From assembly GCF_017348835.2 (NCBI RefSeq), contig NZ_CP071375.1: a stretch of 64,000 bases of DNA. One strand, 5' to 3'. A program made the translations under genes and the position numbers. Positions 44,138 to 64,000 of the stretch are shown here, one piece after another. Every line of letters starts with the position of its first letter. Positions within the stretch are counted from its first letter, which is position 1. Origin of the DNA: Escherichia coli. Its GTDB lineage: Bacteria > Pseudomonadota > Gammaproteobacteria > Enterobacterales > Enterobacteriaceae. Under the pieces are notes generated by a model that did no database searches, was not told where the DNA came from, and saw only the letters and a program-made list of their open reading frames with translations.

Positions 44138-45019
44138 ATGCAGGAGAAGATGATGAGTTATCAGCCACAAACCGAAGCCGCCACCAGCCGTTTTCTGAAT
44201 GTAGAAGAAGCGGGTAAAACGCTGCGCATCCATTTTAATGACTGCGGACAAGGCGACGAAACCGTTGTCCTGCTGCATGGTTCCGGCCCGGGTGCTACTG
44301 GCTGGGCGAACTTCAGCCGCAATATCGATCCGCTGGTAGAGGCGGGCTATCGGGTGATCCTGCTGGATTGTCCGGGTTGGGGCAAGAGCGATTCGATCGT
44401 TAATAGTGGTTCGCGATCGGATCTTAATGCACGAATCCTGAAAAGCGTGGTGGATCAACTGGATATCGCCAAAATCCACCTGCTGGGCAACTCGATGGGT
44501 GGCCATAGTTCTGTGGCGTTCACCCTTAACTGGCCGGAGCGCGTCGGCAAACTGGTGCTGATGGGCGGCGGTACGGGCGGCATGAGTTTGTTTACGCCGA
44601 TGCCAACCGAAGGTATTAAGCGACTGAATCAGCTGTATCGTCAGCCGACTATCGAAAACCTGAAGCTGATGATGGATATCTTCGTTTTTGATACCAGCGA
44701 TTTGACCGACGCCCTGTTTGAAGCGCGCCTGAATAATATGCTGTCGCGCCGCGATCACCTGGAAAACTTTGTTAAGAGCCTGGAAGCCAATCCGAAACAG
44801 TTCCCGGATTTTGGCCCACGTCTGGCGGAAATCAAAGCGCAAACCCTGATTGTCTGGGGGCGCAACGACCGCTTTGTGCCGATGGATGCGGGTCTGCGTC
44901 TGCTGTCCGGCATTGCCGGTTCTGAACTGCATATCTTCCGCGACTGTGGTCACTGGGCGCAGTGGGAACATGCCGACGCTTTCAATCAACTGGTGCTGAA
45001 TTTCCTCGCACGTGCTTAA
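44138..45019 (+). CDS. mhpC: 2-hydroxy-6-ketonona-2,4-dienedioate hydrolase (alpha/beta hydrolase)
   Basis: ORF 44090..45019; GNSMGG nucleophile elbow; start taken at [10 protein letters not shown]. Confidence 0.9.
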
Positions 45020-46781
<1,762 letters not shown>

Positions 46782-46785
<4 letters not shown>

Positions 46786-47795
46786 ACGGTAAAAAACTTT
46801 ATATCTCGGACGTCACGTTGCGTGACGGTATGCACGCCATTCGTCATCAGTATTCGCTGGAAAACGTTCGCCAGATTGCCAAAGCACTGGACGATGCCCG
46901 CGTGGATTCGATTGAAGTGGCCCATGGCGACGGTTTGCAGGGGTCCAGCTTTAACTATGGTTTCGGCGCACATAGCGACCTTGAATGGATTGAAGCAGCG
47001 GCGGATGTGGTGAAGCACGCCAAAATCGCGACGTTGTTGCTGCCAGGAATCGGCACTATTCACGATCTGAAAAATGCCTGGCAGGCTGGCGCGCGGGTGG
47101 TTCGTGTGGCTACGCACTGTACCGAAGCTGATGTTTCCGCCCAGCATATTCAGTATGCCCGCGAACTCGGAATGGACACCGTTGGTTTTCTGATGATGAG
47201 CCATATGACCACGCCGGAGAATCTCGCCAAGCAGGCAAAGCTGATGGAAGGCTACGGTGCGACCTGTATTTATGTGGTGGATTCTGGCGGTGCGATGAAC
47301 ATGAGCGATATCCGTGACCGTTTCCGCGCCCTGAAAGCAGTGCTGAAACCAGAAACGCAAACGGGCATGCACGCTCACCATAACCTGAGTCTTGGCGTGG
47401 CGAACTCTATCGCGGCGGTGGAAGAGGGCTGCGACCGAATCGACGCCAGCCTCGCGGGAATGGGCGCGGGCGCAGGTAACGCGCCGCTGGAAGTATTTAT
47501 TGCCGCCGTGGATAAACTGGGTTGGCAGCATGGGGCCGATCTCTATGCGTTAATGGATGCCGCTGACGACCTGGTGCGTCCGTTGCAGGATCGACCGGTA
47601 CGAGTCGATCGCGAAACGCTGGCGCTGGGATACGCTGGTGTTTACTCCAGCTTCCTGCGTCACTGTGAAACGGCGGCGGCGCGTTATGGCTTAAGCGCGG
47701 TGGATATTCTCGTTGAGCTGGGCAAACGCCGGATGGTTGGCGGCCAGGAGGATATGATCGTCGACGTGGCGCTGGATCTGCGCAACAACAAATAA
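46782..47795 (+). CDS. mhpE: 4-hydroxy-2-oxovalerate aldolase
   Basis: 337 aa; ATGA overlap with mhpF. Confidence 0.92.
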
Positions 47796-47829
47796 TATTG
47801 ACTGCCGAGAACGTGCATTTTGTATGCCC

Positions 47830-48085
<256 letters not shown>

Positions 48086-48172
48086 CCCGTAGGCAGTCAT
48101 TAAATGGTTCTGATTACGCGGCTGGCAATGTATCAGTCGCGATTCACCTGCACTCGCAACGAGGTTCATCTT

Positions 48173-49384
48173 ATGTCGACTCGTACCCCTTCATCATCTT
48201 CATCCCGCCTGATGCTGACCATCGGGCTTTGTTTTTTGGTCGCTCTGATGGAAGGGCTGGATCTTCAGGCGGCTGGCATTGCGGCGGGTGGCATCGCCCA
48301 GGCTTTCGCACTCGATAAAATGCAAATGGGCTGGATATTCAGCGCCGGAATACTCGGTTTGCTACCCGGCGCGTTGGTTGGCGGAATGCTGGCGGACCGT
48401 TATGGTCGTAAGCGTATTTTGATTGGCTCAGTTGCGCTGTTTGGTTTGTTCTCGCTGGCAACGGCGATTGCCTGGGATTTCCCCTCACTGGTCTTTGCGC
48501 GGCTGATGACCGGTGTCGGGCTGGGGGCGGCGTTGCCGAATCTTATCGCCCTGACGTCTGAAGCCGCGGGTCCACGTTTTCGTGGGACGGCAGTGAGCCT
48601 GATGTATTGCGGTGTTCCCATTGGCGCGGCGCTGGCGGCGACACTGGGTTTCGCGGGGGCAAACTTAGCATGGCAAACGGTGTTTTGGGTAGGTGGTGTG
48701 GTGCCGTTGATTCTGGTGCCGCTATTAATGCGCTGGCTGCCGGAGTCGGCGGTTTTCGCTGGCGAAAAACAGGCTGCGCCACCACTGCGTGCGTTATTTG
48801 CGCCAGAAACGGCAACCGCGACGCTGCTGCTGTGGTTGTGTTATTTCTTCACTCTGCTGGTGGTCTACATGTTGATCAACTGGCTACCGCTGCTTTTGGT
48901 GGAGCAAGGATTCCAGCCATCGCAGGCGGCAGGGGTGATGTTTGCACTGCAAATGGGTGCGGCGAGCGGGACGTTAATGTTGGGCGCATTGATGGATAAG
49001 CTGCGTCCAGTAACCATGTCGCTACTGATTTATAGCGGCATGTTAGCTTCGCTGCTGGCGCTTGGAACGGTGTCGTCATTTAACGGTATGTTGCTGGCGG
49101 GATTTGTCGCGGGGTTGTTTGCGACAGGTGGGCAAAGCGTTTTGTATGCCCTGGCACCGTTGTTTTACAGTTCGCAGATCCGCGCAACAGGTGTGGGAAC
49201 AGCCGTGGCGGTAGGGCGTCTGGGGGCTATGAGCGGTCCGTTACTGGCCGGGAAAATGCTGGCATTAGGCACTGGCACGGTCGGCGTAATGGCCGCTTCT
49301 GCACCGGGTATTCTTGTTGCTGGGTTGGCGGTGTTTATTTTGATGAGTCGGAGATCAAGAATGCAGCCGTGTGCCGATGCCTGA
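48173..49384 (+). CDS. mhpT: MFS 3-hydroxyphenylpropionate transporter (403 aa)
   Basis: ORF 48104..49384; start MSTRTPSSSSSRLMLTIGL at 48173. Confidence 0.88.
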   Translation: MSTRTPSSSSSRLMLTIGLCFLVALMEGLDLQAAGIAAGGIAQAFALDKMQMGWIFSAGILGLLPGALVGGMLADRYGRKRILIGSVALFGLFSLATAIAWDFPSLVFARLMTGVGLGAALPNLIALTSEAAGPRFRGTAVSLMYCGVPIGAALAATLGFAGANLAWQTVFWVGGVVPLILVPLLMRWLPESAVFAGEKQAAPPLRALFAPETATATLLLWLCYFFTLLVVYMLINWLPLLLVEQGFQPSQAAGVMFALQMGAASGTLMLGALMDKLRPVTMSLLIYSGMLASLLALGTVSSFNGMLLAGFVAGLFATGGQSVLYALAPLFYSSQIRATGVGTAVAVGRLGAMSGPLLAGKMLALGTGTVGVMAASAPGILVAGLAVFILMSRRSRMQPCADA

Positions 49385-49485
49385 CGCGCCTTATTAAGCA
49401 GGGGCGAAAGGGACTTGCCCCCAATACACCCACGGCGTTTACAGGTATACTCGCTAAAAATTATTCAGCGGGTTTGGAAACAAAG

Positions 49486-50025
49486 ATGGCAAAACTTACC
49501 TTACAAGAGCAGTTGCTCAAAGCAGGATTAGTCACCAGCAAAAAAGCGGCGAAGGTCGAGAGAACGGCGAAAAAATCGCGCGTTCAGGCGCGTGAAGCTC
49601 GGGCGGCGGTAGAAGAAAATAAAAAGGCACAGCTTGAGCGTGATAAACAGCTTAGCGAACAGCAAAAACAAGCGGCGTTGGCGAAAGAATATAAAGCTCA
49701 GGTGAAGCAGCTTATTGAAATGAACCGGATCACCATTGCCAATGGCGATATTGGTTTTAACTTCACTGATGGCAATCTGATTAAGAAGATTTTTGTCGAT
49801 AAGCTCACACAGGCGCAGTTGATTAATGGTCGTCTGGCGATTGCCCGCTTGTTGGTCGATAACAATAGCGAAGGTGAATACGCCATTATTCCCGCCAGCG
49901 TTGCCGATAAAATTGCTCAGCGTGATGCCAGCAGTATTGTGTTGCACAGCGCGCTCAGTGCCGAAGAGCAGGATGAAGACGATCCGTATGCCGACTTCAA
50001 AGTGCCTGATGATTTGATGTGGTAA
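49486..50025 (+). CDS. yaiL: DUF2058 family protein (179 aa)
   Basis: ORF 49369..50025; start MAKLTLQEQLLKAGLVTSKK at 49486. Confidence 0.85.
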   Translation: MAKLTLQEQLLKAGLVTSKKAAKVERTAKKSRVQAREARAAVEENKKAQLERDKQLSEQQKQAALAKEYKAQVKQLIEMNRITIANGDIGFNFTDGNLIKKIFVDKLTQAQLINGRLAIARLLVDNNSEGEYAIIPASVADKIAQRDASSIVLHSALSAEEQDEDDPYADFKVPDDLMW

Positions 50026-50034
50026 ACATAGATA

Positions 50035-50145
50035 AGTCGTGCGCAGATGCCTGATGCGACGCTTACGCGTCTTATCATGCCTACGGCTCATGGGCGAAAT
50101 GTAGGCCGGATAAGGCGTTCACGCCGCATCCGGCAGTTGTGCACT
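50035..50145. repeat. REP pair between yaiL and frmB
   Basis: GCCTGATGCGACGCTTACGCGTCTTATCATGCCTAC ... GTAGGCCGGATAAGGCGTTCACGCCGCATCCGGCA. Confidence 0.85.
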
Positions 50146-50149
50146 ATTA

Positions 50150-50983
50150 TCAACGCATATTCAGTTTATTGGCGTGGTAGGCAATATGCTCGCCAATAAA
50201 ACTGGAGACAAAATAATAGCTGTGGTCGTAACCCTCGTGATAACGGATTAACGTCTTGATATTCATCTCCTGGCAGATCTTTTCAAGATTTGGAGTCCGC
50301 AGCTGTTCCGCGTAAAAATCATCACTCAACCCCTGATCAACCATTATTTCCGCAACGCGTTGACCTTGTGAAATAAGACTCACCGGGTCGTAATACAACC
50401 AGGCATCTTTATTTTCACCAAGATATGCAGCAAAGGCTTGCTGTCCCCACGGTACTTGCGATGGGGAGACAATGGGCGAAAACGCCGAGACGCTGACATA
50501 TTCATCTGGGTTACGTAACGCCAACACCAGCGCGCCCAGCCCGCCCATAGAATGACCTGAGATAGACTTTCTGGTCGTTGCCGGAAAATGATGCATCACT
50601 AAATCCGGCAGCTCGTTGCGGATATAGTCATACATTTTGTAATGTTCATTCCACGGCGCTTGCGTCGCGTTCAGGTAAAATCCGGCACCTTGCCCGAGAT
50701 CGTAACGGTCGGCATTTGCGACATGACTGCCTCGCGGACTGGTGTCCGGCGCAACAACAATAATGTTGTGCTCAGCCGCGTAACGCTGCATCCCCGATTT
50801 AGTAATGAAATTCTGCTCATTGCAGGTCAGGCCTGAAAGCCAGTACAGCACCGGCAATTTTTCATTCGCGGCTTTTGGTGGGAGATAGACGCCGACATTC
50901 ATTTCACATTTCAGTGATGCGGAATAATGCCGATACACATTTTGCCAGCCGCCAAAGCTGGCATGTTTTTCAATGAGTTCCAT
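50150..50983 (-). CDS. frmB: S-formylglutathione hydrolase
   Basis: 277 aa esterase with the GHSMGG nucleophile elbow. Confidence 0.92.
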   Translation of the reverse strand: MELIEKHASFGGWQNVYRHYSASLKCEMNVGVYLPPKAANEKLPVLYWLSGLTCNEQNFITKSGMQRYAAEHNIIVVAPDTSPRGSHVANADRYDLGQGAGFYLNATQAPWNEHYKMYDYIRNELPDLVMHHFPATTRKSISGHSMGGLGALVLALRNPDEYVSVSAFSPIVSPSQVPWGQQAFAAYLGENKDAWLYYDPVSLISQGQRVAEIMVDQGLSDDFYAEQLRTPNLEKICQEMNIKTLIRYHEGYDHSYYFVSSFIGEHIAYHANKLNMR

Positions 50984-51075
50984 CAGTCATTATCTCACGG
51001 TTAATCCCCCGGACGGCTGCCCGGGGAGAGTATTAAGAACCCCGTCTGAACTGGACGGGGTAAACCAGCGGGAAA

Positions 51076-52215
<1,140 letters not shown>

Positions 52216-52219
52216 TCAG

Positions 52220-52495
52220 CTATTTAAGATAGGCACGAACCAGTTCAATAGTGTCGTCAACGGATTGGCTGACTTCGCGGCTGTAGCAGTCATTTCGGTC
52301 AAACGTTTCCCGGATATGGCTTTCAAGCACTTCTGCCATCAGCCCATTAGCCGCGCCCCGAACGGCAGCGATCTGTTGGAGTATGGCACGGCATTCGGCA
52401 TCACTCTCCAGCGACCGTTCCAGAGCATCAATCTGCCCTCGAATACGACGAACTCGAGTAAGGACCTTTTTCTTCTCTTCCGGAGTACTGGGCAT
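52220..52495 (-). CDS. frmR: formaldehyde-responsive repressor (CsoR/RcnR family, 91 aa)
   Basis: ORF 52220..52516; start [30 protein letters not shown] at 52495. Confidence 0.92.
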
Positions 52496-52520
52496 TTCGC
52501 ACCTCATCATCTGCATGCAA

Positions 52521-52571
52521 TATACTATAGGGGGGTATGCTATATGTCAATGCATACCCCCCTATAGTATA
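52521..52571. promoter_or_regulatory. 51-bp palindrome (20-bp perfect arms TATACTATAGGGGGGTATGC / GCATACCCCCCTATAGTATA) upstream of frmR; probable FrmR operator
   Basis: Read directly; 26 bp upstream of the frmR start; G6/C6 tracts typical of CsoR/RcnR-family operators. Confidence 0.75.
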
Positions 52572-52654
52572 TAACACTGGAGAATAATTGTTGTCCGAAG
52601 CCTAACCAGGTGAACGGTCCCTCAAGACAGATGGGGACCGTTTATGTGCTATTT

Positions 52655-53713
52655 TTATGCCGCATCCGCTAAAACAAACATCCCGTAAGGATGGATTTCG
52701 AGGTAATAGTGCTCACCAATATCGGGCTGTAAACGGGTGGCGTTTACTTGTAATAGAATCTCCTGTCCATGCCACTCTACGGTCACTTCGTACTGCGGCC
52801 CCATGTAGGCGACATGGCGAATAACACAACGCTGACTCTCTTCGCCGTGATTGCTTAAGGTGATGGCTTCCGGGCGAACGCCGACGGTGCCGCTACCTTG
52901 CGCCGGGAAATGCGCCGCGCGCGGCAGGCGATAACCGTAGATATCGACATACTCTTCGCTAAAGTTCGCCGGGAACAGGTTGGCGTCGCCCATAAAACTT
53001 GCCATAAATCGGGAGGCTGGCTGACGATAGAGATCCTGCGGTGAGCCAATTTGCATGATGTGACCTTTATTCATCACCAGCACAGTGTCGGACACCGCGA
53101 AAGCTTCACTTTGATCGTGAGTGACGTAGAGCGACGTGATATTAAACTGCTTTTGCAGCTCGCGGATCTTATCGCGCATACTGCGGCGCAGGTTGGCATC
53201 GAGGTTACTTAACGGCTCATCAAACAGCAGCACCTTTGGCTTGAGGATCAACGCGCGGGCCAGTGCCACTCGCTGTTGCTGACCACCGGAAATCTGATCG
53301 ACATAGCGGTCCTCGAAGCCTTCCAGATCCACCATTGCCAGCGCCTCCTTCACCCGCTGTTTCACTTCGCTACGCGAGACGCCAAGCATCTTCAGCCCGT
53401 AGCCAACGTTTTCACCCAGCGACATATGCGGGAACAGAGCGTATGACTGAAACACCATGCAGATATCGCGCTGTTGAATGGAACGATGCGTGACATCTTC
53501 GCCATCAATAAAAATTTGCCCTTCGCTCGGTTTTTCCAGCCCGGCAACCAGACGCAAAATGGTGGTTTTGCCACAGCCGGAAGGACCGAGCAGCGTCACC
53601 ATTTGCCCTTGTGGAATGGTGAGATTGATATTGTCGATAACCGTATTACTGCCGAATCGTTTAGTGACGTTGCGCAGTTCAACAAAATTTTTCTGACTCA
53701 TATTGCGCTCCAT
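52655..53713 (-). CDS. afuC: ABC transporter ATP-binding protein (FbpC/AfuC-like, 352 aa)
   Basis: Walker [10 protein letters not shown], signature ISGGQQQRV, Walker B LLFDEPLS. Confidence 0.85.
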
Positions 53714-55791
53714 TACGCCTGGTTTTTGGCTTTAGAACGGGAGATACGAGCTTCTCCGATCAGCCAGTCAAAGAGGAAAATAATCGCCAGCATCACCACG
53801 ATCAGAATCGAACCATAGGCGATGGCTACGCCATATTCGCCGTCTTCAACGCGGTTAAGAATGTAGGCGGTTGCCACGCGGGTGTCCGGCGTGACGAGAA
53901 AGACGATGGCGCTGACCGTCGTGATGGCCCGCACAAAGCTGTAGATCAGGGCCGAGAGAATGGCCGGACGCAGCAGCGGCAGTAAAATGTGGGTTATGGT
54001 TCGCAAGGAACCCGCGCGCAGGCTGAGTGAGGCTTCATCCAGCGATTTGTCGATCTGCCCCAGACCCGCAATCCCGGCGCGAATACCCACCGGAACGTTA
54101 CGCATCACCATCGAGATAATCACAATTGCCGCCGTTCCGGTGAGATAAACCGGAGCGCTGTTAAAGGCAAGAATATACGAAACGCCCGCCACCGTACCCG
54201 GTACGGCAAAGCACAGCATGGTGGTGAACTCGATGGTCTTTTTGCCTTTGAATTGTTGACGCACCACCACCCAGGCGATGAGCAGGCCAAAGATAGCGGT
54301 AATGGGAGCGGCAATCCCGGCGTAGAGCAGGGTATCCAGCAGTGAAGGCCACGCGCCGTCGCTCATTCCCTGACCAAATAGCTTGATAAAGTTATCCAGC
54401 GTCAGGGTGTAGTCCACGCCCCAGTTCACCGTGAAGCTGCCGTAGAAAATGCTGCCGTAGAGCAGGGCGTTAAAGGCAATCCATATCGCAAGTATGGCGA
54501 CCACGCTCCACACCAGGGTGACCGGTAGCGGCTGGACGTCGCCACGGTAGGATTTGCCGGAAACCGTGACGTAAGAGCGTTTACCAATCCACATATACTG
54601 GATGCAGAACACCAGCAGCGAGAACAGCAGCAGGAAAGCGCCAAGGGTGCTGGCGGCCTGATAATCCAGCTGCGAGCCGGTAATATAGAAGTAAATTTGC
54701 GTCGCCAGTACGTCGAAGTTACCGCCAAGTACCAGCGGGTTACTGAAATCAGCCAGTGACTGTACCACGACGATTAAAAAGGCATTGGCGAGTGCGGGCT
54801 TCAACAACGGCACAAACACGCCGTTAAAGGTTTGCCAGCGGCTGGCGCGCAGGGTGTAGGAGGCCTCTTCCAGCGAGGGATGAATGGTTTTAATGGCCCC
54901 GTCGAGGATCATAAATGCCATTGGCGTGAATGCCAGAACCTGTGCCAGCCAGATCCCGGTAAAACCGTACAGCCAGTTGGTGTTGGTCAGCCCAAACCAC
55001 TCCACCATAAATTCCGTAACATAGCCGGAGCGCCCCATCATGAGCGTCACGCCTAAGCCGACCACAAACGGTGGCGTAACGATGGGCAAAATGGAAAAGA
55101 TGCGACCAATAATGGCGCTGCGTTTAGCGATGCGCGTGGTATAAATCGCCAGCACCAGGCCGAAGAAAGTACAGCCTATCCCCACCGCTATCGACAAGAC
55201 GATAGAGTTGACGATCACCTGAACAATATGTGCCTGCGAGAGCACGGTCATAAACGCCAGCGGGGCGAACTCTCCCGCGTCGTTGGTGAACATCGGGATA
55301 AAAATGGCGATGCTCGGCCAGACGATAAAAATGCCAATCAGCGCCACAATCGCAATCAGTGAGCCGATCACGAAGCGGTCGCCGCCCAGCCATTCGAGGC
55401 GGGTTAAGGCCAGCGTCATAATCGCGCCTAGTTCAACAAACAGCACGATGGCGGCGTAGCCTAAACCGCGTCCAGCCACGGTGGCGCTGATGACGATAAA
55501 CGCCATACAGAGCAATGCCCAGCTGGCATCAAAATAATGACGACTACGCTGTTCGCGTGTGGCCTCACGAAACGGGCGAACCAGCAACAGACTCGGTAAC
55601 AAATACCACAGCCAGCTGATATTAAAATGCGACCAGCCATAAGCCTCGAGGATCTCATCACTCGTGGACTCCAGCAGGCCATAATCGAGGCTCCAGCTCG
55701 GCAACAGTATAAATGCCAGCCAGCCCAGCAAAACCCAAAGGAAAATCGCATCCCGCTTTTTCACGGGATGGAGTGCAAGTGTCTGTGACAT
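53713..55791 (-). CDS. afuB: ABC transporter permease, fused two-domain (FbpB/AfuB-like, 692 aa)
   Basis: 692 aa polytopic ORF with two permease domains; start overlaps afuC. Confidence 0.85.
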
Positions 55792-55859
55792 AGCAGTTCC
55801 GGTATGGTTGGCCGGGGCAGGCGTTTGTGCTGCACCCGGTAAATACGCCTAATGCGGGT

Positions 55860-56891
55860 TTATTTACCCATCTTCACTTCGCTGACCCATTTATTAATCA
55901 ATGCCTTACGAACATCCGTGGAACCATATTTATCCATGTCGTAGTTGATTAATTTCAGGTCGTCGAGCTTCAGCGAATTTGGCGACGTTTCGGCGGTGGT
56001 ATTGGTCAGGATCTGATAAGACTTCCCTTTCTTCCACGCCAGTTCCTGAGCTTCTTTTGATAATACCCAGTCCACAAACAGTTTGGCGTTGTCGAGGTTG
56101 CGCGCGCCTTTCAGAATGCTGACGCCGCCAATTTCGTAGCCCGTACCTTCACACGGGGAAATCAACTCCAGCGGCGCGCCCTGTTCTTTTTCCAGCGAGT
56201 AGTCATGCAGGAAGCCAATACCAATCGCCGTTTCGCCACGGGCGGCGTTACGTGCCGGGGCTATGCCTGATTTGGTGTACTGAGAGACGTTGGCGTTCAG
56301 TTGTTTTAGATAATCAAAGGCCTGATCTTCCCCCCACAGCTGCGCAAAAGTAGCCAGGGCGGTGTAGGCAGTACCGGAACTTTGCGGATCGGCAATTTGA
56401 ATTTCGCCTTTATATTCCGGTTTGGTGAGATCTTTCCAGCACTTCGGCACCGGCAGGTTTTTCTCTTTCAGACGATCGGTGTTTACGCCAAAACCGAGGA
56501 TCCCCACATAAACGGCAGAGGACAGATTCCCTTTCACTTTTGCCGGATCGCGGAATTTCTCCATGATCTGCTCAAGGTTAGGGGATTTATACGCCTGTAG
56601 CAGGCCCATCTCGCCAGCCTGCGATTGCGGGTCTAAAGTGCCGCCGTACCAGACGTCAGCCTGGGGGTTTTTCTTTTCAGCATCGACTTTTGCCAGGGTG
56701 CTTCCGGAACCGTTGCGGATAAACGAGGTTTTTACATCATATTTCTCGCCAAACGCTTTGGTTTCGGCCTCACACATTTCATTGGTGGCGCTGCAATAGA
56801 CCACCAGCCGGCCTTTTGCCTGCGCGGCACCCGTTAAAGTCGCCAGCGCAACGGCAGAAGCAATCAGAGTAGAGGTAAAGGTCATTTTCAT
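55860..56891 (-). CDS. afuA: periplasmic substrate-binding protein (AfuA-like, about 343 aa) with signal peptide
   Basis: ORF 55860..57218 runs antisense through the upstream gene; real start MKMTFTSTLIASAVALATLTGAAQA at 56891, overlapping the upstream gene stop by 4 bp. Confidence 0.8.
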   Translation of the reverse strand: MKMTFTSTLIASAVALATLTGAAQAKGRLVVYCSATNEMCEAETKAFGEKYDVKTSFIRNGSGSTLAKVDAEKKNPQADVWYGGTLDPQSQAGEMGLLQAYKSPNLEQIMEKFRDPAKVKGNLSSAVYVGILGFGVNTDRLKEKNLPVPKCWKDLTKPEYKGEIQIADPQSSGTAYTALATFAQLWGEDQAFDYLKQLNANVSQYTKSGIAPARNAARGETAIGIGFLHDYSLEKEQGAPLELISPCEGTGYEIGGVSILKGARNLDNAKLFVDWVLSKEAQELAWKKGKSYQILTNTTAETSPNSLKLDDLKLINYDMDKYGSTDVRKALINKWVSEVKMGK

Positions 56892-58204
56892 TGTTTTATC
56901 CTTCGAGCGTGAGTGGTGGTGATGCCCGCCATCAGTAACGGCATCAGCAGTAAACCCATAAGTACTGCGGCGACCGAGAGTAAACTGAACATTCCCGGCC
57001 AGCCGTAGCGTTCGATGACCAGCGACAGCGGCCAGCCTGCCAGCGCCGCGCCAAGGTAAGCGAACAGGCCGAGAAATCCGGTGATTGAACCCGCCGCAGC
57101 TTTGTGCCCACACTCCACCGCCGCAAGTCCAATCAGCATTTGTGGGCCAAAGACGAAAAAGCCCACGGTAAAAAAGCACACTGCCAGCAGAGCGTAGTGA
57201 TGAACCGGTGCCAGCCACAGTGCGGCGACTGACACCATCAATCCCAACGTGAACAGCAAAATCATTGGCGCTCGTTGCCCGCTAAACAGCAAATCCGATC
57301 CCCATCCGGCAAATAACGCGCCGAGTAAGCCGCCCACTTCAAACAGCATTACCGTGGCGTTGGCGCTGAGCAGGTTGACACCGTGGCTTTCCGTCAGCCA
57401 GATATTGCCCCAGTCGTTAAGCGCAATCCGGATCACATAAACCAGTACATAAGAGACGCCCAGTATCCAGATCAGCGGATTTTGCAGCATGGTGGTGCGC
57501 AACATTTGCCACAGCCCCATCGGCGGACTTTGTTGTTCCTGACGTAACTCCAGCGGATCGTGACGCCAGTGACCAACTGTCGGTAATCCCTCTTCCTGGG
57601 GCGTGCCTTTGAGTTGTAGTGTTAACCAGATCCCTAATGCCATGCTGATTATCCCCGGTGTCAGCATCGCGGCCTGCCAGCCCCACCAGTGGGCGGCAAA
57701 GGCGCTAATCAGCGGAATAATCGCTCCGCCAATGTTGATCGACATATTCCAGCAGCCCCACCAGAAACCGCGCTCATTGCGTGAGTACCAGTGGGTCAGC
57801 AAGCGGGCACACGGTGGCCATCCCCAACCCTGAAAAAAACCGTTCAGTGTCCAGACCACAAGCAGAAGCGTAAGTGATTCGCCAAAGGCAAACACCACGT
57901 TCAATAACCCGGTGGCGAACAAGCCAACGCCCATAAAACCGCGTTGTCCGTGGCTGTCATGCCACAGTCCGGCGGTAAATTTCGACAATCCGTAGCTGAG
58001 ATAAAACAGCGAACCCAGCAGGCCAATGTCGCCTTTATCCAGTCCGAGGTCGGTTTGTAGCGCCGGAAGGACGTAATTCACGCTTTTTCGCGTCAGATAA
58101 AATGCGGCGTAGCCAATAATCATGCACATCAGCAATCGCGGACGTAATGTCCGGTAGCATTGATTAATTTCTCTCGCTGAACGCGCGTGCATGGTTGTCT
58201 CCAT
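56888..58204 (-). CDS. MFS sugar-phosphate sensor/transporter, UhpC-like (438 aa)
   Basis: High similarity by eye to UhpC (YLTRKS, NGFFQGWGWPPCARLLTHWYSRNERG, DWGNIWLTESHGV). Confidence 0.85.
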   Translation of the reverse strand: METTMHARSAREINQCYRTLRPRLLMCMIIGYAAFYLTRKSVNYVLPALQTDLGLDKGDIGLLGSLFYLSYGLSKFTAGLWHDSHGQRGFMGVGLFATGLLNVVFAFGESLTLLLVVWTLNGFFQGWGWPPCARLLTHWYSRNERGFWWGCWNMSINIGGAIIPLISAFAAHWWGWQAAMLTPGIISMALGIWLTLQLKGTPQEEGLPTVGHWRHDPLELRQEQQSPPMGLWQMLRTTMLQNPLIWILGVSYVLVYVIRIALNDWGNIWLTESHGVNLLSANATVMLFEVGGLLGALFAGWGSDLLFSGQRAPMILLFTLGLMVSVAALWLAPVHHYALLAVCFFTVGFFVFGPQMLIGLAAVECGHKAAAGSITGFLGLFAYLGAALAGWPLSLVIERYGWPGMFSLLSVAAVLMGLLLMPLLMAGITTTHARRIKQ

Positions 58205-58276
58205 GTTGCTGACTATATGAAAATGAAAGTGAAAGGGGATGAGAGAAAATCCGGGATACCTAAGACTTTTTCCTGG

Positions 58277-59818
58277 TTATCCGGCGATTTGTTGCAAAAA
58301 TGTGGGCAAGTTAACAATTACCCGCGTGCCGTGCTGTTTTTCGAGCGTTAAGTCGCCGCCCAGGGCGCTGACGCGCTCACGCATCCCCTGAATGCCAAAT
58401 CCGGCCATTTTCCCGCTGGCGATCCCCACACCGTTGTCGCTGACTTCCAGATGCAATACCTCTCCCTGCTGGCGCAGGATAATCGTCACTTCGCTGGCTT
58501 CGGCGTGTTTACAGATGTTATTAAGCAACTCCTGCAATAACCGATACAAGGTAAAGCGCACCGTTTCGTTTTCTGGTGTGGAGTTCAGTTGATAGGCAAA
58601 CTGGCAATGAATGCCGCGTTCACTAAAGGCAAATTCATTAATCAGATGCAACAACGCTTCGCGAAATGTCAGTTCATCAAGCGCGGGAGGCCGCAACTGG
58701 CGCAGCAATTGGCGGGTGGAAAGATGAATGCGGCGGGCGAGCTCATTGATTTGGCTGGCTGCGGATTGAATTTGCGCCGGATCACGCGCCCGCTTCACCA
58801 GTTGCGACTGGATCTGAATGGCGGTGATGTTCTGACCGATTTCGTCGTGCAGCTCTCGCGCCAGGTTTTTTCGCGTGTCCTCCTCGGTGTGGATCAGCTT
58901 TTCCGCCAATGCCCGCCGCGCTGCCAGCTCGGCCTCCAGCCGTTGTCGGTAATGGTGCAGGTTTAGCGCCAGATGTTGCTGGCGACTGATGGCAATGCCC
59001 AGGCCAATTCCCAGCAAGGCCTGGGTCGCGAGGAAAATCTCCAGCTCCACCAGGTTACTAAAGCCCACGCCAATCTGGCGGGCGATGGTGATCATCATGC
59101 TGCCCAAAAGCCCGGAGAGTACGCCACCTTGCCAGCCAAATTTCCACGCCATCACCACATTGGGCAAAAAGACCACGATCAACAGCAGACGTTCAATTTC
59201 AGGTGACAGCACCATCTGAGTGCCGATACCAATAATAAAAAACAGGCTACACCAGATGATTAAAGAGGTACGCAAGGGGGGATTATGCGTATCGAGTCCC
59301 AGGAGCTGGTAGCGATGCTGCTGGCGCAGAAACTCAAAGATAAGATAGACAAACGGCGTCAGTAATACGCCGCCGGTAAATGAGGTCAAACCCGGCAGCA
59401 TTATTGGGCCTGACATAAAAGGGGAGAGCAGGGCGGTATTCAACAATGAAGCTGCCGTGACAGTGGCTAACAGCAACGTCAGACGCTGCCAGTAAAGTGG
59501 AAAACGGTGCCAGAAGTTTTGCGCAAGGAGGGCAGGAAACAGGCTAATAACCGGCGTTGCCAGCATGAGATAACCGTTCAATAGCTGTTCACTATGGAGC
59601 CAGAACATCATCAGCAAAGGGGGGAGCACCAACGCAGGCCAGTAGCGGCGAGAGAGCAAAATAACAAGGGCGAGATAAACTCCCTGCGGGAGAAACAACA
59701 CCGCCTGTTGACCGTTATTGGTCAGATAAAAGCTGAGCGTCCACAGCATCAGCCAGCCGGTTCCCCAGGCCAGCACAATAAACAGCGAAATCACCCAATG
59801 ACGAAGATTGCGCGACAT
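58277..59818 (-). CDS. membrane sensor histidine kinase, UhpB-like (513 aa)
   Basis: Multi-TM N-terminus; H-box ELHDEIGQ; C-terminal HATPase motifs (DNGVGI, GFGIQGMRER). Confidence 0.85.
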   Translation of the reverse strand: MSRNLRHWVISLFIVLAWGTGWLMLWTLSFYLTNNGQQAVLFLPQGVYLALVILLSRRYWPALVLPPLLMMFWLHSEQLLNGYLMLATPVISLFPALLAQNFWHRFPLYWQRLTLLLATVTAASLLNTALLSPFMSGPIMLPGLTSFTGGVLLTPFVYLIFEFLRQQHRYQLLGLDTHNPPLRTSLIIWCSLFFIIGIGTQMVLSPEIERLLLIVVFLPNVVMAWKFGWQGGVLSGLLGSMMITIARQIGVGFSNLVELEIFLATQALLGIGLGIAISRQQHLALNLHHYRQRLEAELAARRALAEKLIHTEEDTRKNLARELHDEIGQNITAIQIQSQLVKRARDPAQIQSAASQINELARRIHLSTRQLLRQLRPPALDELTFREALLHLINEFAFSERGIHCQFAYQLNSTPENETVRFTLYRLLQELLNNICKHAEASEVTIILRQQGEVLHLEVSDNGVGIASGKMAGFGIQGMRERVSALGGDLTLEKQHGTRVIVNLPTFLQQIAG

Positions 59819-60447
59819 TAATGCCCCGCCAGCAGATGGTGGTCGAGCGCAAAATGTACCAGTTCAATGGTGCTATGGCAGTTCAGTTTTCCCAGCACAT
59901 TGGCGCGATGCACATGTACCGTTTTATGACTGAGTTCGAGTTTAAAGGCGATCTCTTTAACGCTGTCTCCTTTGACCAGTAAATCAAACACTTCACGTTC
60001 TCGTGGGGTGAGAATTTCCAGCGCCTGGGCGGGTTGCCCGCCGCCGCGTAAAGCCCGAATCGCATCGGCACAGAGATAATGCCCGCCCAGCCCGACCGAG
60101 CGCACCGCCTGCACTAACTCTTCCGGCCCACAGCGTTTGGTTAAATACCCGCTGGCACCGGCATCCAGCGCGCTTTGCACAAAGGTTGGCGCGTCATAAA
60201 TGCTAAGAATAATGGCGCGAAATTGCGGTTTTTGTGCACGCAGGCGCTTAAGCAAACTGAGGCCGTTTTCGTCCGGCATGGCAATATCAATGACGGCAAC
60301 ATTGACGTCATCACGGATTAATGCCGACCATGCCTGCGCGGCACTACTGTACTGACCAATGACCTCCAGATCGTCTTCCAGAGAGAGTAATTGTGCGAAG
60401 CCAGAGCGCACCACCACATGGTCATCCACCAGCACTACCCGAATCAT
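59818..60447 (-). CDS. response regulator, NarL/FixJ family, UhpA-like (209 aa)
   Basis: Receiver domain (VVLVDDH...IDIAMPD) and LuxR-type HTH (EIAFKLELSHKTVHVHRANVLGKL). Confidence 0.85.
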   Translation of the reverse strand: MIRVVLVDDHVVVRSGFAQLLSLEDDLEVIGQYSSAAQAWSALIRDDVNVAVIDIAMPDENGLSLLKRLRAQKPQFRAIILSIYDAPTFVQSALDAGASGYLTKRCGPEELVQAVRSVGLGGHYLCADAIRALRGGGQPAQALEILTPREREVFDLLVKGDSVKEIAFKLELSHKTVHVHRANVLGKLNCHSTIELVHFALDHHLLAGH

Positions 60448-60749
60448 ACTTTTCTTCTCTTATTATCTAATTCTCCTATCATGCATCACGGCGCGGCGCT
60501 GGCAATCAACCAGCGACAGATATGGAATGGATGTAACAAAATGGCAATAATTTGCCGGAGCGCGCACATCTTATCTGTCTTGTGAACCGGCGGGATACGT
60601 TCGCCAAAACCGCAAAATGTGCAAACTCGCTAACCATTGCCGATTTTTTTCTAAAAACGCTTTGTTCTTAACAAGACCTTTTAATTCCTTTATCAAACTG
60701 ACCCGCAACGAAATACTGCTCCCATAACAAGACAGGGGAGCAGACAATC

Positions 60750-61712
60750 ATGGCAATTTCATCGCGTAACACTCTTCTTGCCGCACTGGCATTCATCGCT
60801 TTTCAGGCGCAGGCGGTGAACGTCACCGTGGCGTATCAAACCTCAGCCGAACCGGCGAAAGTGGCTCAGGCCGACAACACCTTTGATAAAGAAAGCGGAG
60901 CAACCGTGGACTGGCGTAAGTTTGACAGCGGAGCCAGCATCGTGCGGGCGCTGGCTTCAGGCGACGTGCAAATCGGCAACCTCGGTTCCAGCCCGTTAGC
61001 GGTTGCAGCCAGCCAACAGGTGCCGATTGAAGTCTTCTTGCTGGCGTCAAAACTGGGTAACTCCGAAGCGCTGGTGGTAAAGAAAACTATCAGCAAACCG
61101 GAAGATCTGATTGGCAAACGCATCGCCGTACCGTTTATCTCCACCACCCACTACAGCCTGCTGGCGGCGCTGAAACACTGGGGCATTAAACCCGGGCAAG
61201 TGGAGATTGTGAACCTGCAGCCGCCCGCGATTATCGCTGCCTGGCAGCGGGGAGATATTGATGGTGCTTATGTCTGGGCACCGGCGGTTAACGCCCTGGA
61301 AAAAGACGGCAAGGTGTTGACCGATTCTGAACAGGTCGGGCAGTGGGGCGCGCCAACGCTGGACGTTTGGGTGGTGCGCAAAGATTTTGCCGAGAAACAT
61401 CCTGAGGTCGTGAAAGCGTTCGCTAAAAGCGCCATCGATGCTCAGCAACCGTACATTGCTAACCCAGACGTGTGGCTGAAACAGCCGGAAAACATCAGCA
61501 AACTGGCGCGTTTAAGCGGCGTGCCTGAAGGTGACGTTCCGGGGCTGGTGAAGGGGAATACCTATCTGACGCCGCAGCAACAAACGGCAGAACTGACCGG
61601 ACCGGTGAACAAAGCGATCATCGACACCGCGCAGTTTTTGAAAGAGCAGGGCAAGGTCCCGGCTGTAGCGAATGATTACAGCCAGTACGTTACCTCGCGC
61701 TTCGTGCAATAA
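60750..61712 (+). CDS. tauA: taurine ABC transporter periplasmic binding protein
   Basis: 320 aa with signal peptide. Confidence 0.9.
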   Translation: MAISSRNTLLAALAFIAFQAQAVNVTVAYQTSAEPAKVAQADNTFDKESGATVDWRKFDSGASIVRALASGDVQIGNLGSSPLAVAASQQVPIEVFLLASKLGNSEALVVKKTISKPEDLIGKRIAVPFISTTHYSLLAALKHWGIKPGQVEIVNLQPPAIIAAWQRGDIDGAYVWAPAVNALEKDGKVLTDSEQVGQWGAPTLDVWVVRKDFAEKHPEVVKAFAKSAIDAQQPYIANPDVWLKQPENISKLARLSGVPEGDVPGLVKGNTYLTPQQQTAELTGPVNKAIIDTAQFLKEQGKVPAVANDYSQYVTSRFVQ

Positions 61713-61724
61713 AAGGAGGCGCAG

Positions 61725-62492
61725 ATGCTGCAAATCTCTCATCTTTACGCCGATTATGGCGGCAAACCGGTACTGGAAGATATCAACCTGACGCTGGAAA
61801 GCGGCGAGCTACTGGTGGTGCTGGGGCCGTCCGGCTGCGGTAAAACCACCCTGCTGAATTTGATTGCCGGTTTTGTGCCTTATCAGCATGGCAGCATTCA
61901 ACTGGCGGGTAAGCGTATTGAGGGGCCGGGAGCAGAGCGTGGCGTAGTTTTTCAGAATGAAGGGCTACTACCGTGGCGCAATGTACAGGACAACGTGGCG
62001 TTCGGCCTGCAATTGGCAGGTATAGAGAAAATGCAGCGACTGGAAATCGCGCACCAGATGCTGAAAAAAGTGGGGCTGGAAGGCGCAGAAAAACGCTACA
62101 TCTGGCAGCTTTCCGGTGGTCAACGTCAGCGGGTGGGGATTGCCCGCGCGCTGGCGGCGAATCCCCAGCTGTTATTACTCGACGAACCGTTTGGTGCGCT
62201 GGACGCCTTCACCCGCGACCAGATGCAAACCCTGCTGCTGAAACTCTGGCAGGAGACGGGCAAGCAGGTGCTGTTGATTACCCACGATATAGAAGAAGCG
62301 GTGTTTATGGCGACTGAACTGGTTCTGCTTTCATCCGGCCCTGGCCGTGTGCTGGAGCGGCTGCCGCTCAACTTTGCTCGCCGCTTTGTTGCGGGAGAGT
62401 CGAGCCGCAGCATCAAGTCCGATCCACAATTCATCGCCATGCGCGAATATGTTTTAAGCCGCGTATTTGAGCAACGGGAGGCGTTCTCATGA
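61725..62492 (+). CDS. tauB: taurine ABC transporter ATP-binding protein
   Basis: 255 aa; Walker [10 protein letters not shown], signature LSGGQRQRV. Confidence 0.9.
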
Positions 62493-63316
62493 GTGTGCTC
62501 ATTAATGAAAAACTGCATTCGCGGCGGCTGAAATGGCGCTGGCCGCTCTCGCGTCAGGTGACCTTAAGCATTGGCACGTTAGCGGTTTTACTCACTGTAT
62601 GGTGGACGGTGGCGGCGCTGCAACTGATTAGCCCGCTGTTTTTGCCGCCGCCGCAACAAGTACTGGCAAAACTGCTCACCATTGCCGGACCGCAGGGATT
62701 TATGGACGCCACGCTGTGGCAGCATCTGGCAGCCAGCCTGACGCGCATTGTGCTGGCGCTACTCGCGGCGGTGTTGATCGGCATTCCGGTCGGGATCGCC
62801 ATGGGGCTAAGCCCGACGGTGCGCGGCATTCTGGATCCGGTAATCGAACTTTATCGTCCGGTGCCACCGCTGGCTTATTTACCACTGATGGTGATCTGGT
62901 TTGGTATTGGCGAAACCTCGAAGATCTTACTGATCTATTTAGCGATTTTTGCGCCGGTGGCGATGTCGGCGCTGGCAGGGGTGAAAAGCGCGCAGCAGGT
63001 TCGCATTCGTGCCGCCCAGTCGCTGGGTGCCAGCCGTGCGCAGGTGCTGTGGTTTGTCATTTTGCCCGGCGCGCTGCCGGAAATCCTCACCGGATTACGT
63101 ATTGGTCTGGGTGTGGGCTGGTCTACGCTGGTGGCGGCGGAGCTGATTGCCGCGACGCGCGGTTTAGGATTTATGGTTCAGTCAGCGGGTGAATTTCTCG
63201 CGACTGACGTGGTGCTGGCGGGGATCGCGGTGATTGCGATTATCGCCTTTCTTTTAGAACTGGGTCTGCGCGCGTTACAGCGCCGCCTGACGCCCTGGCA
63301 TGGAGAAGTACAATGA
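62489..63316 (+). CDS. tauC: taurine ABC transporter permease
   Basis: 275 aa; ATGA overlaps with tauB and tauD. Confidence 0.9.
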
Positions 63317-64000
63317 GTGAACGTCTGAGCATTACCCCGCTGGGGCCGTATATCGGAGCACAAATTTCGGGTGCCGACCTGACGCGCCCGTTAAGCGATA
63401 ATCAGTTTGAACAACTTTACCATGCTGTACTGCGCCATCAGGTGGTGTTTCTGCGCGATCAAGCCATTACGCCGCAGCAGCAACGCGCGCTGGCCCAGCG
63501 TTTTGGTGAACTGCATATTCACCCTGTTTACCCTCATGCCGAAGGGGTTGACGAGATCATCGTGCTGGATACCCATAACGATAATCCGCCAGATAACGAC
63601 ACCTGGCATACCGATGTGACATTTATTGAAACGCCACCCGCAGGGGCGATTCTGGCAGCGAAAGAGTTACCTTCGACCGGCGGCGATACGCTCTGGACCA
63701 GCGGTATTGCGGCCTATGAGGCGCTCTCTGTTCCCTTCCGCCAGCTGCTGAGCGGGCTGCGTGCGGAGCATGATTTTCGTAAATCGTTCCCGGAATACAA
63801 ATACCGCAAAAGCGAGGAGGAACATCAACGCTGGCGCGAGGCGGTCGCGAAAAACCCGCCGTTGCTACATCCGATGGTGCGAACGCATCCGGTGAGCGGT
63901 AAACAGGCGCTGTTTGTGAATGAAGGCTTTACTACGCGAATTGTTGATGTGAGCGAGAAAGAGAGCGAAGCCTTGTTAAGTTTTTTGTTTGCCCATATCA
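63313..64000 (+). CDS. tauD: taurine dioxygenase (alpha-ketoglutarate dependent), 5' part only
   Basis: Manual translation from the ATG at 63313 gives [52 protein letters not shown]; runs to the window edge. Confidence 0.88.
   Translation, partial: MSERLSITPLGPYIGAQISGADLTRPLSDNQFEQLYHAVLRHQVVFLRDQAITPQQQRALAQRFGELHIHPVYPHAEGVDEIIVLDTHNDNPPDNDTWHTDVTFIETPPAGAILAAKELPSTGGDTLWTSGIAAYEALSVPFRQLLSGLRAEHDFRKSFPEYKYRKSEEEHQRWREAVAKNPPLLHPMVRTHPVSGKQALFVNEGFTTRIVDVSEKESEALLSFLFAHI

Follow-up and report, generated by a model that had tools for sequence, protein, structure and literature searches.

The afuABC operon ends 159 bp ahead of the start codon of frmR (52495) in the 64,000-nucleotide stretch of Escherichia coli DNA analysed here (the window), and a short inverted repeat stands between the two. 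This arrangement raises the question of whether the repeat terminates afuABC transcripts before they reach frmR, whether it marks the place where a genomic island joined the chromosome, or whether it has some other role. A sequence-only reading had noted a GGTCCC/GGGACC stem-loop immediately past the afuC stop, next to the frmR control region, and had offered it as a terminator insulating frmR from island read-through or as a mark of the insertion junction. The stem-loop is present where it was described, and the two six-base arms are the core of a longer, perfect 9-bp stem. As set out below, this hairpin is real but ordinary; it lies within the left margin of the known island OI-20 and is most likely the 3' stem-loop of an operon's RNA.

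A stable hairpin follows the afuC stop codon

Both the sequence and an inverted-repeat listing give a perfect 9-bp inverted repeat with a 12-nt loop (Table 1), in which six of the pairs are G-C, so that the stem falls among the GC-rich stems of 5-14 bp expected of intrinsic terminators. It starts 12 nt past the afuC stop codon TAA (52657-52655), the last of the operon, which is where 3' stem-loops are classically found. The hairpin lies on the upstream side of the frmR -35 hexamer, 63 bp away from it; measured from the frmR transcription start it is roughly 95-125 bp upstream, outside the FrmR operator.

Table 1 Features of the afuC-frmR and tauA regions (window coordinates)
Feature	Position	Strand	Remarks
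frmB/fghA	50150-50983	-	
frmA	51076-52185	-	
frmR	52220-52495	-	first gene of frmRAB (annotation, translation)
FrmR operator palindrome	52520-52572	-	21-bp arms; contains the frmR promoter
frmR promoter -10, TAGTAT	52527-52522	-	within operator palindrome
frmR promoter -35, TTGACA	52550-52545	-	within operator palindrome
Left junction, core DNA/island DNA	52587-52588		core side common to K-12 and empty-site strains
Island-specific spacer, afuC stop to junction	52588-52654	-	67 nt; afuC 3' untranslated region
Hairpin	52613-52642	-	arms 52613-52621 and 52634-52642, loop 52622-52633 (sequence, fold, inverted-repeat listing)
Hairpin left arm	52613-52621		AACGGTCCC (inverted repeat)
Hairpin loop	52622-52633		TCAAGACAGATG, 12 nt
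Hairpin right arm	52634-52642		GGGACCGTT (inverted repeat)
afuC (annotated fbpC)	52655-53701	-	ATPase, last gene of afuABC (PE164 RefSeq annotation, 100% identical; ORF list)
afuB	53713-55791	-	
Inverted copy of loop 10-mer	60573-60582	-	CAAGACAGAT; 24-33 nt inside island right end (60605/60606 vs empty site)
tauA leader hairpin	60716-60743	+	CTGCTCCC-ATAACAAGACAG-GGGAGCAG; 8-bp stem, 12-nt loop

Fold prediction bears out the stem-loop on both strands, with energies well beyond those of shuffled sequence. Transcribed in the direction of afuC (- strand), the 36-nt hairpin RNA reaches -17.0 kcal/mol (z = -4.3), a value equalled by none of 200 shuffles, and the 61-nt hairpin RNA of the + strand reaches -23.1 kcal/mol (z = -3.5). 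Two extra pairs inside the loop are predicted for the window strain and are gone in other haplotypes. The whole window holds seven distinct sites with a perfect 9-bp inverted repeat and a loop of 3-14 nt (15 registers, vs 4.1 ± 2.4 in Markov simulations), so the afuC hairpin is not unique there. Simple arithmetic gives a chance expectation of only about 0.003 such repeats in the 67-nt spacer, and the placement directly after the last stop codon of the operon is therefore not random.

Membership of a known RNA family was rejected, as nothing in Rfam 15 reaches the gathering score: no family match overlaps 52613-52642, and the eight matches below that score (E up to 10) all lie either over the palindrome of the FrmR operator or in afuC near 53016-53082. 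A small + strand open reading frame, with ATG at 52644 behind a Shine-Dalgarno-like GGGGA, was likewise set aside, having only 14 codons and reading ATC in haplotype N96.

The hairpin lies inside the left edge of island OI-20

To place the island junction, we compared 52400-52900 with 5426 complete E. coli genomes by megablast. The frmR gene and its promoter were matched in 5415 genomes, and in all but 450 of these the match ended at query base 188 (window 52587). A direct alignment with K-12 breaks at the same point, which fixes the left edge of the island at 52587/52588. The hairpin is thus wholly island-specific, 25 bp inside that edge, and the objection that it might lie in DNA shared with K-12, and so be unrelated to the junction, falls away. 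The 73-bp piece 52588-52660 is found in 450 of the 5426 genomes, in one copy per genome and always beside fbpC/afuC.

In the 100% identical strain PE164 the island stands between tauA and frmR, and its annotated genes are a response regulator, a MASE1 histidine kinase, a uhpC-like gene, afuA, afuB and afuC. The island is OI-20 (fusKR, the uhpC-like gene and afuABC) of EHEC O157:H7; according to Sit et al. 2015 (PMC4546632), OI-20 contains the FusKR fucose sensor and the AfuABC transporter for hexose and heptose phosphates. The frmR-tauA site exists in three states among the 5426 complete genomes: the K-12 type, with yaiO to yaiS, in 4370; the OI-20 type, with afu, in 450; and an empty type, in which frmR and tauA are divergent across a 305-bp spacer, in 576, ST131 included. 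This polymorphism neatly illustrates how alternative gene blocks can occupy a single site of the core genome.

The left breakpoints of the yaiO-yaiS and OI-20 blocks are 11 bp apart. Against the empty site the island comprises 52588-60605, a place occupied there by 69 unrelated bp. In the comparison with K-12, the right-hand break falls at 60711/60712, 38 bp ahead of the tauA ATG. No repeat of at least 14 nt pairs the two island ends, no tRNA gene was found in 45000-64000, and the annotated island genes of PE164 include no integrase or transposase. The GC content of the island equals that of its flanks, with no anomaly. The blocks at this site look like alternatives swapped by recombination in the flanks rather than the product of a simple insertion.

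The suggestion that the hairpin marks the insertion junction is not borne out by these results, since the breakpoint is 25 bp away from it and neither significant flanking repeats nor a tRNA gene, an integrase or a transposase accompany it. Compared with O-island/K-island boundaries (Perna 2001, as relayed for OI-20 by Sit et al. 2015, PMC4546632), the locus is similar in that alternative gene blocks occupy the site and mobility genes are absent. It differs in that the hairpin stands inside the edge instead of forming the breakpoint, and in that the island has no att-like direct repeat, tRNA, integrase or transposase.

Residual homology between the afuC-frmR spacer and the K-12 yaiO-frmR spacer was also considered and rejected: short collinear matches are visible by eye only, and the alignment is no better than that of shuffled sequences (P 0.14-0.72). 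Separately, the empty-site spacer (L098 2747-2767) contains GATGTTTGTTAAAAATAGCA, which corresponds to the afuC 3' end minus 16 nt, inverted. This 21-nt match (window 52682-52647, - strand) consists of GATGTTTGTT and AAAAATAGCA in inverted orientation and was discarded as probably due to chance, with individual E-values of 0.15 and 0.6.

Terminator features are incomplete on both strands

The hairpin resembles the Rho-independent terminators of E. coli in its GC-rich stem, placed directly behind the stop codon that closes the operon, and in its strong predicted folding. It differs from them in the tail, the loop and the outcome of terminator scans. Read in the afuC direction, the bases that follow the stem are CACCUGGUU, which fall short of five U in eight nucleotides; counted over CACCUGGUUAGGCUU, U occupies three of the first nine bases and none of the first four. 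The loop, at 12 nt, is longer than the 3-8 nt of intrinsic terminators, the U-rich run is on the opposite strand, and two consensus terminator scans called nothing at the hairpin on either strand. Because no U-tract follows the stem in the afuC sense, the hairpin does not qualify there as a canonical intrinsic terminator, and the proposal that it terminates read-through from the island is not supported. Insulation of frmR by the hairpin is no more than a possibility.

On the + strand the tail UUUAUGUGCUAUUUUUAUG is an interrupted U-run, with 5 U in the 8 nt past the last G-C pair, and the corresponding tail UUUAUGUG has the required number only when counted from that pair. An intrinsic terminator acting on this strand, or in both directions, could stop transcripts from the frmR side before they enter afuC in antisense, and the greater stability of the + strand stem would suit such a role, as would this U-rich run. 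The mirror image of the FrmR operator even provides a weak promoter-like sequence (ATGTCA, 16 nt, TAGTAT; 8 of 12 positions matched), yet the scans found no + strand gene and no promoter at threshold that would feed the hairpin. Moreover, the interrupted U-run overlaps the stop codon and last codons of afuC and may simply be coding and stop-codon composition, the loop is long here too, and positions 52646 and 52647 of the tail vary between haplotypes. On this evidence, we regard a + strand or bidirectional terminator as improbable.

A terminator-like site, CATCCTTACGGGATG followed by TTTGTTTTAG, was also seen within the last 13 codons of afuC (52693-52679, - strand). Such sites are expected by chance about 0.9 times per kb, and the stem of this one is lost in the K-12 paralogue of afuC.

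The stem is invariant among intact haplotypes

The window was compared with the haplotypes of N96, E200086, MB53 and a lineage with a 99%-identical AfuC (L089/L094), which amounts to only 4-5 intact OI-20 haplotypes. Between the operator and the stop codon 16 of 79 positions vary among them; four of these are in the loop, and none is among the 18 positions of the stem (hypergeometric P = 0.009). No compensatory stem changes occur among the 4-5 haplotypes, so an RNA structure, a DNA palindrome and low local diversity would all be compatible with the conservation seen.

The sole substitution seen in the stem is a C to T change carried by genomes CP057162.1 and CP057688.1, where the hairpin is split by an insertion. 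An IS50-like element of the IS4 family is inserted in the loop (L095 4580-6131, CP057162.1; also L096, L009 and L093), with ends CTGTCTCTTATACACAA and CTGTCTCTTGATCAGATCT, a transposase of 457 aa and a 9-bp target duplication, CTTGTCTTG, and it parts afuC from frmR in one Escherichia lineage. The hairpin was therefore already destroyed in the lineage with the stem substitution.

A perfect palindrome with two invariant arms might also be the DNA site of a dimeric regulator, with two 9-bp half-sites whose centres are 21 bp apart, and part of the loop/arm motif does recur in the fusR-tauA intergenic region. Such a site would, however, be downstream of a gene and outside the known FrmR operator, about 100 bp ahead of the frmR start site. 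The arm AACGGTCCC is not enriched in the window either (14 matches with at most one mismatch, vs 12.7 expected), and we find a regulator site very hard to credit.

Other afuC genes are followed by unrelated stem-loops

The afuC paralogue of K-12 in CP4-6 is 85% identical to that of OI-20 and has a truncated afuB and IS1 as neighbours (L006 2393-2500). The homology between the two genes is lost exactly at the stop codon, after which the CP4-6 copy is followed by REP elements and a convergent mmuM. We extended the comparison to 80 afuC loci of other Enterobacterales, 79 of them long enough to fold. In none of the 80 is frmR downstream of afuC; the commonest context is a convergent mmuM (37 of 80). 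Neither the spacer nor the hairpin sequence was found in the afuC-downstream DNA of the 79, and the hairpin sequence is confined to Escherichia carriers of OI-20. The idea that the hairpin travels with afuC was rejected on these grounds, as the downstream DNA of the CP4-6 paralogue and of the 79 other species is unrelated and frmR is absent there.

The first 60 nt past afuC in the 79 loci nevertheless fold with a median of -23 kcal/mol, and 67% of them have z < -2. Their sequences are unrelated to that of the OI-20 hairpin, and many of them resemble REP elements. As a rule, then, afuC is followed by a 3' stem-loop whose sequence turns over, which by analogy fits a generic function at the RNA end.

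In position and kind of structure the hairpin resembles REP/BIME elements and stem-loops that stabilise 3' untranslated regions, such as the REP sequence that follows afuC in K-12 CP4-6; the likeness extends to many other Enterobacterales, and by analogy the expected function would be the same, a barrier to exonucleases. Unlike REP/BIME elements, it is single copy in each genome and unrelated to the REP consensus. We also rejected its being itself a REP/BIME or mobile repeat, in view of one copy per genome, occurrence in 450 genomes only and no repeat match.

The restriction of the sequence to Escherichia OI-20 carriers (none of 79 other species with afuC), together with the seven comparable sites in the window and the lack of covariation, may instead suggest that the hairpin has no function, being a chance palindrome or a relic of the recombination that placed OI-20, carried along with the island. 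This would leave unexplained why the stem is invariant while loop and flanks vary (P 0.009), and why the site is one typical of functional 3' hairpins, with analogues in other species. We consider the absence of function possible but on the whole unlikely.

Proposed role at the 3' end of the afuABC mRNA

Stable 3' stem-loops and REP elements shield upstream mRNA from exonucleases, and after Rho-dependent termination, transcripts are usually shortened from the 3' end until such a stem-loop is reached. We propose, with a probability of about 0.5, that the hairpin is the 3'-end stem-loop of the afuABC mRNA, acting as an exonuclease barrier and at most as a weak terminator. This assignment draws on position, stability, stem invariance and analogy, while the function at the RNA level is extrapolated from general knowledge. 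Once polymerase has passed the afuC stop codon, the RNA would fold into the 9-bp GC-rich stem. As no U-tract follows, the hairpin alone would probably not release polymerase efficiently, and it would be at most a weak pause or termination site. Termination would take place further downstream, Rho-dependent or leaky, and would be followed by trimming to the hairpin, which likely blocks 3'-to-5' exonucleases and so would define and stabilise the 3' end of the afuABC mRNA.

Any shielding of the frmR promoter from read-through would be partial, and would be shared with the RNA hairpin of the FrmR operator and with bound FrmR. Denby et al. 2016 (PMC5146963) describe the operator palindrome as a large inverted repeat with its centre at -29 of Pfrm. 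In a read-through RNA from afuC, the operator palindrome would fold as a perfect 21-bp stem, an RNA hairpin that is, by prediction, much stronger than that of afuC. The entire 171-nt afuC-frmR spacer (52490-52660, - strand) folds at -73 kcal/mol (z -6.8), so that the small hairpin is not the sole structure between the two genes. For read-through into frmR, the stem of the operator palindrome may outweigh it.

The hairpin itself matters little, being a structure of a routine kind that closes an accessory operon. Of wider interest is that the gap between afuABC and frmR holds no canonical terminator, so that afuABC expression could leak into frmRAB. In strains that carry OI-20, for example O157:H7, expression of a sugar-phosphate transporter could in this way reach the formaldehyde-detoxification operon.

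The loop motif recurs in the tauA leader and at the right end of the island

When the junction sequences were aligned, the afuC hairpin fell onto the leader of tauA, which forms a hairpin of its own (-14.5 kcal/mol, z -5.7) that is identical in K-12. The two hairpins have in common TCCC, CAAGACAG, GGGGA, the strand and the loop length of 12 nt, and among the 23 perfect hairpins of the window with stems of at least 8 bp, the tauA leader is the only one that shares a 6-mer with the afuC hairpin loop. The alignment of the two has P 0.03-0.14.

A 10-mer of the loop (52623-52632) is also repeated in inverted orientation near the right end of the island, so that the pair lies 24-35 nt inside the island ends, with P 0.035-0.10 for such an end-to-end inverted repeat against random pairs from the window. 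In all, the 8-mer CAAGACAG, which the 10-mer extends by two bases, has three copies in the 64-kb window (52623-52632 on the + strand, 60573-60582 on the - strand and 60728-60735 on the + strand) vs 1.07 expected, a number that was also reached in 8 of 100 shuffles.

The inverted copy of CAAGACAG near the right end and the direct one in the tauA leader hairpin hint at a shared origin, which would favour a functionless relic over the mRNA 3'-end stem-loop preferred above, but the resemblances are statistically marginal (P 0.03-0.14). They amount to no more than a weak hint that relics of the island's formation may persist at its ends. Spelled out, common descent would link the tauA leader hairpin with the afuC hairpin and with the inverted copy of the afuC loop and arm at the right end (60573-60590), all of them footprints of the placement of OI-20 between frmR and tauA; they may, for example, include a decayed duplicate of the tauA leader, or be old subterminal inverted repeats of a now immobile element. 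We regard common descent as a long shot, although the hairpin would then really mark how the island was built.

Two further observations concern tauA itself. The 3' arm of its leader hairpin contains the Shine-Dalgarno sequence GGGAG, 6 nt ahead of the ATG at 60750, so that the predicted structure could sequester the ribosome-binding site. Upstream of it, the K-12 type of the tauA promoter region (60600-60711 vs L008 2539-2650) is highly diverged from the version common to OI-20 and empty-site strains, while conserved islands, among them GCCG.TTTTTT.CTAA.AA and TAATTC.TTTA, are kept in ungapped register; the divergence ends sharply, giving way to near identity from 38 bp before the tauA ATG.
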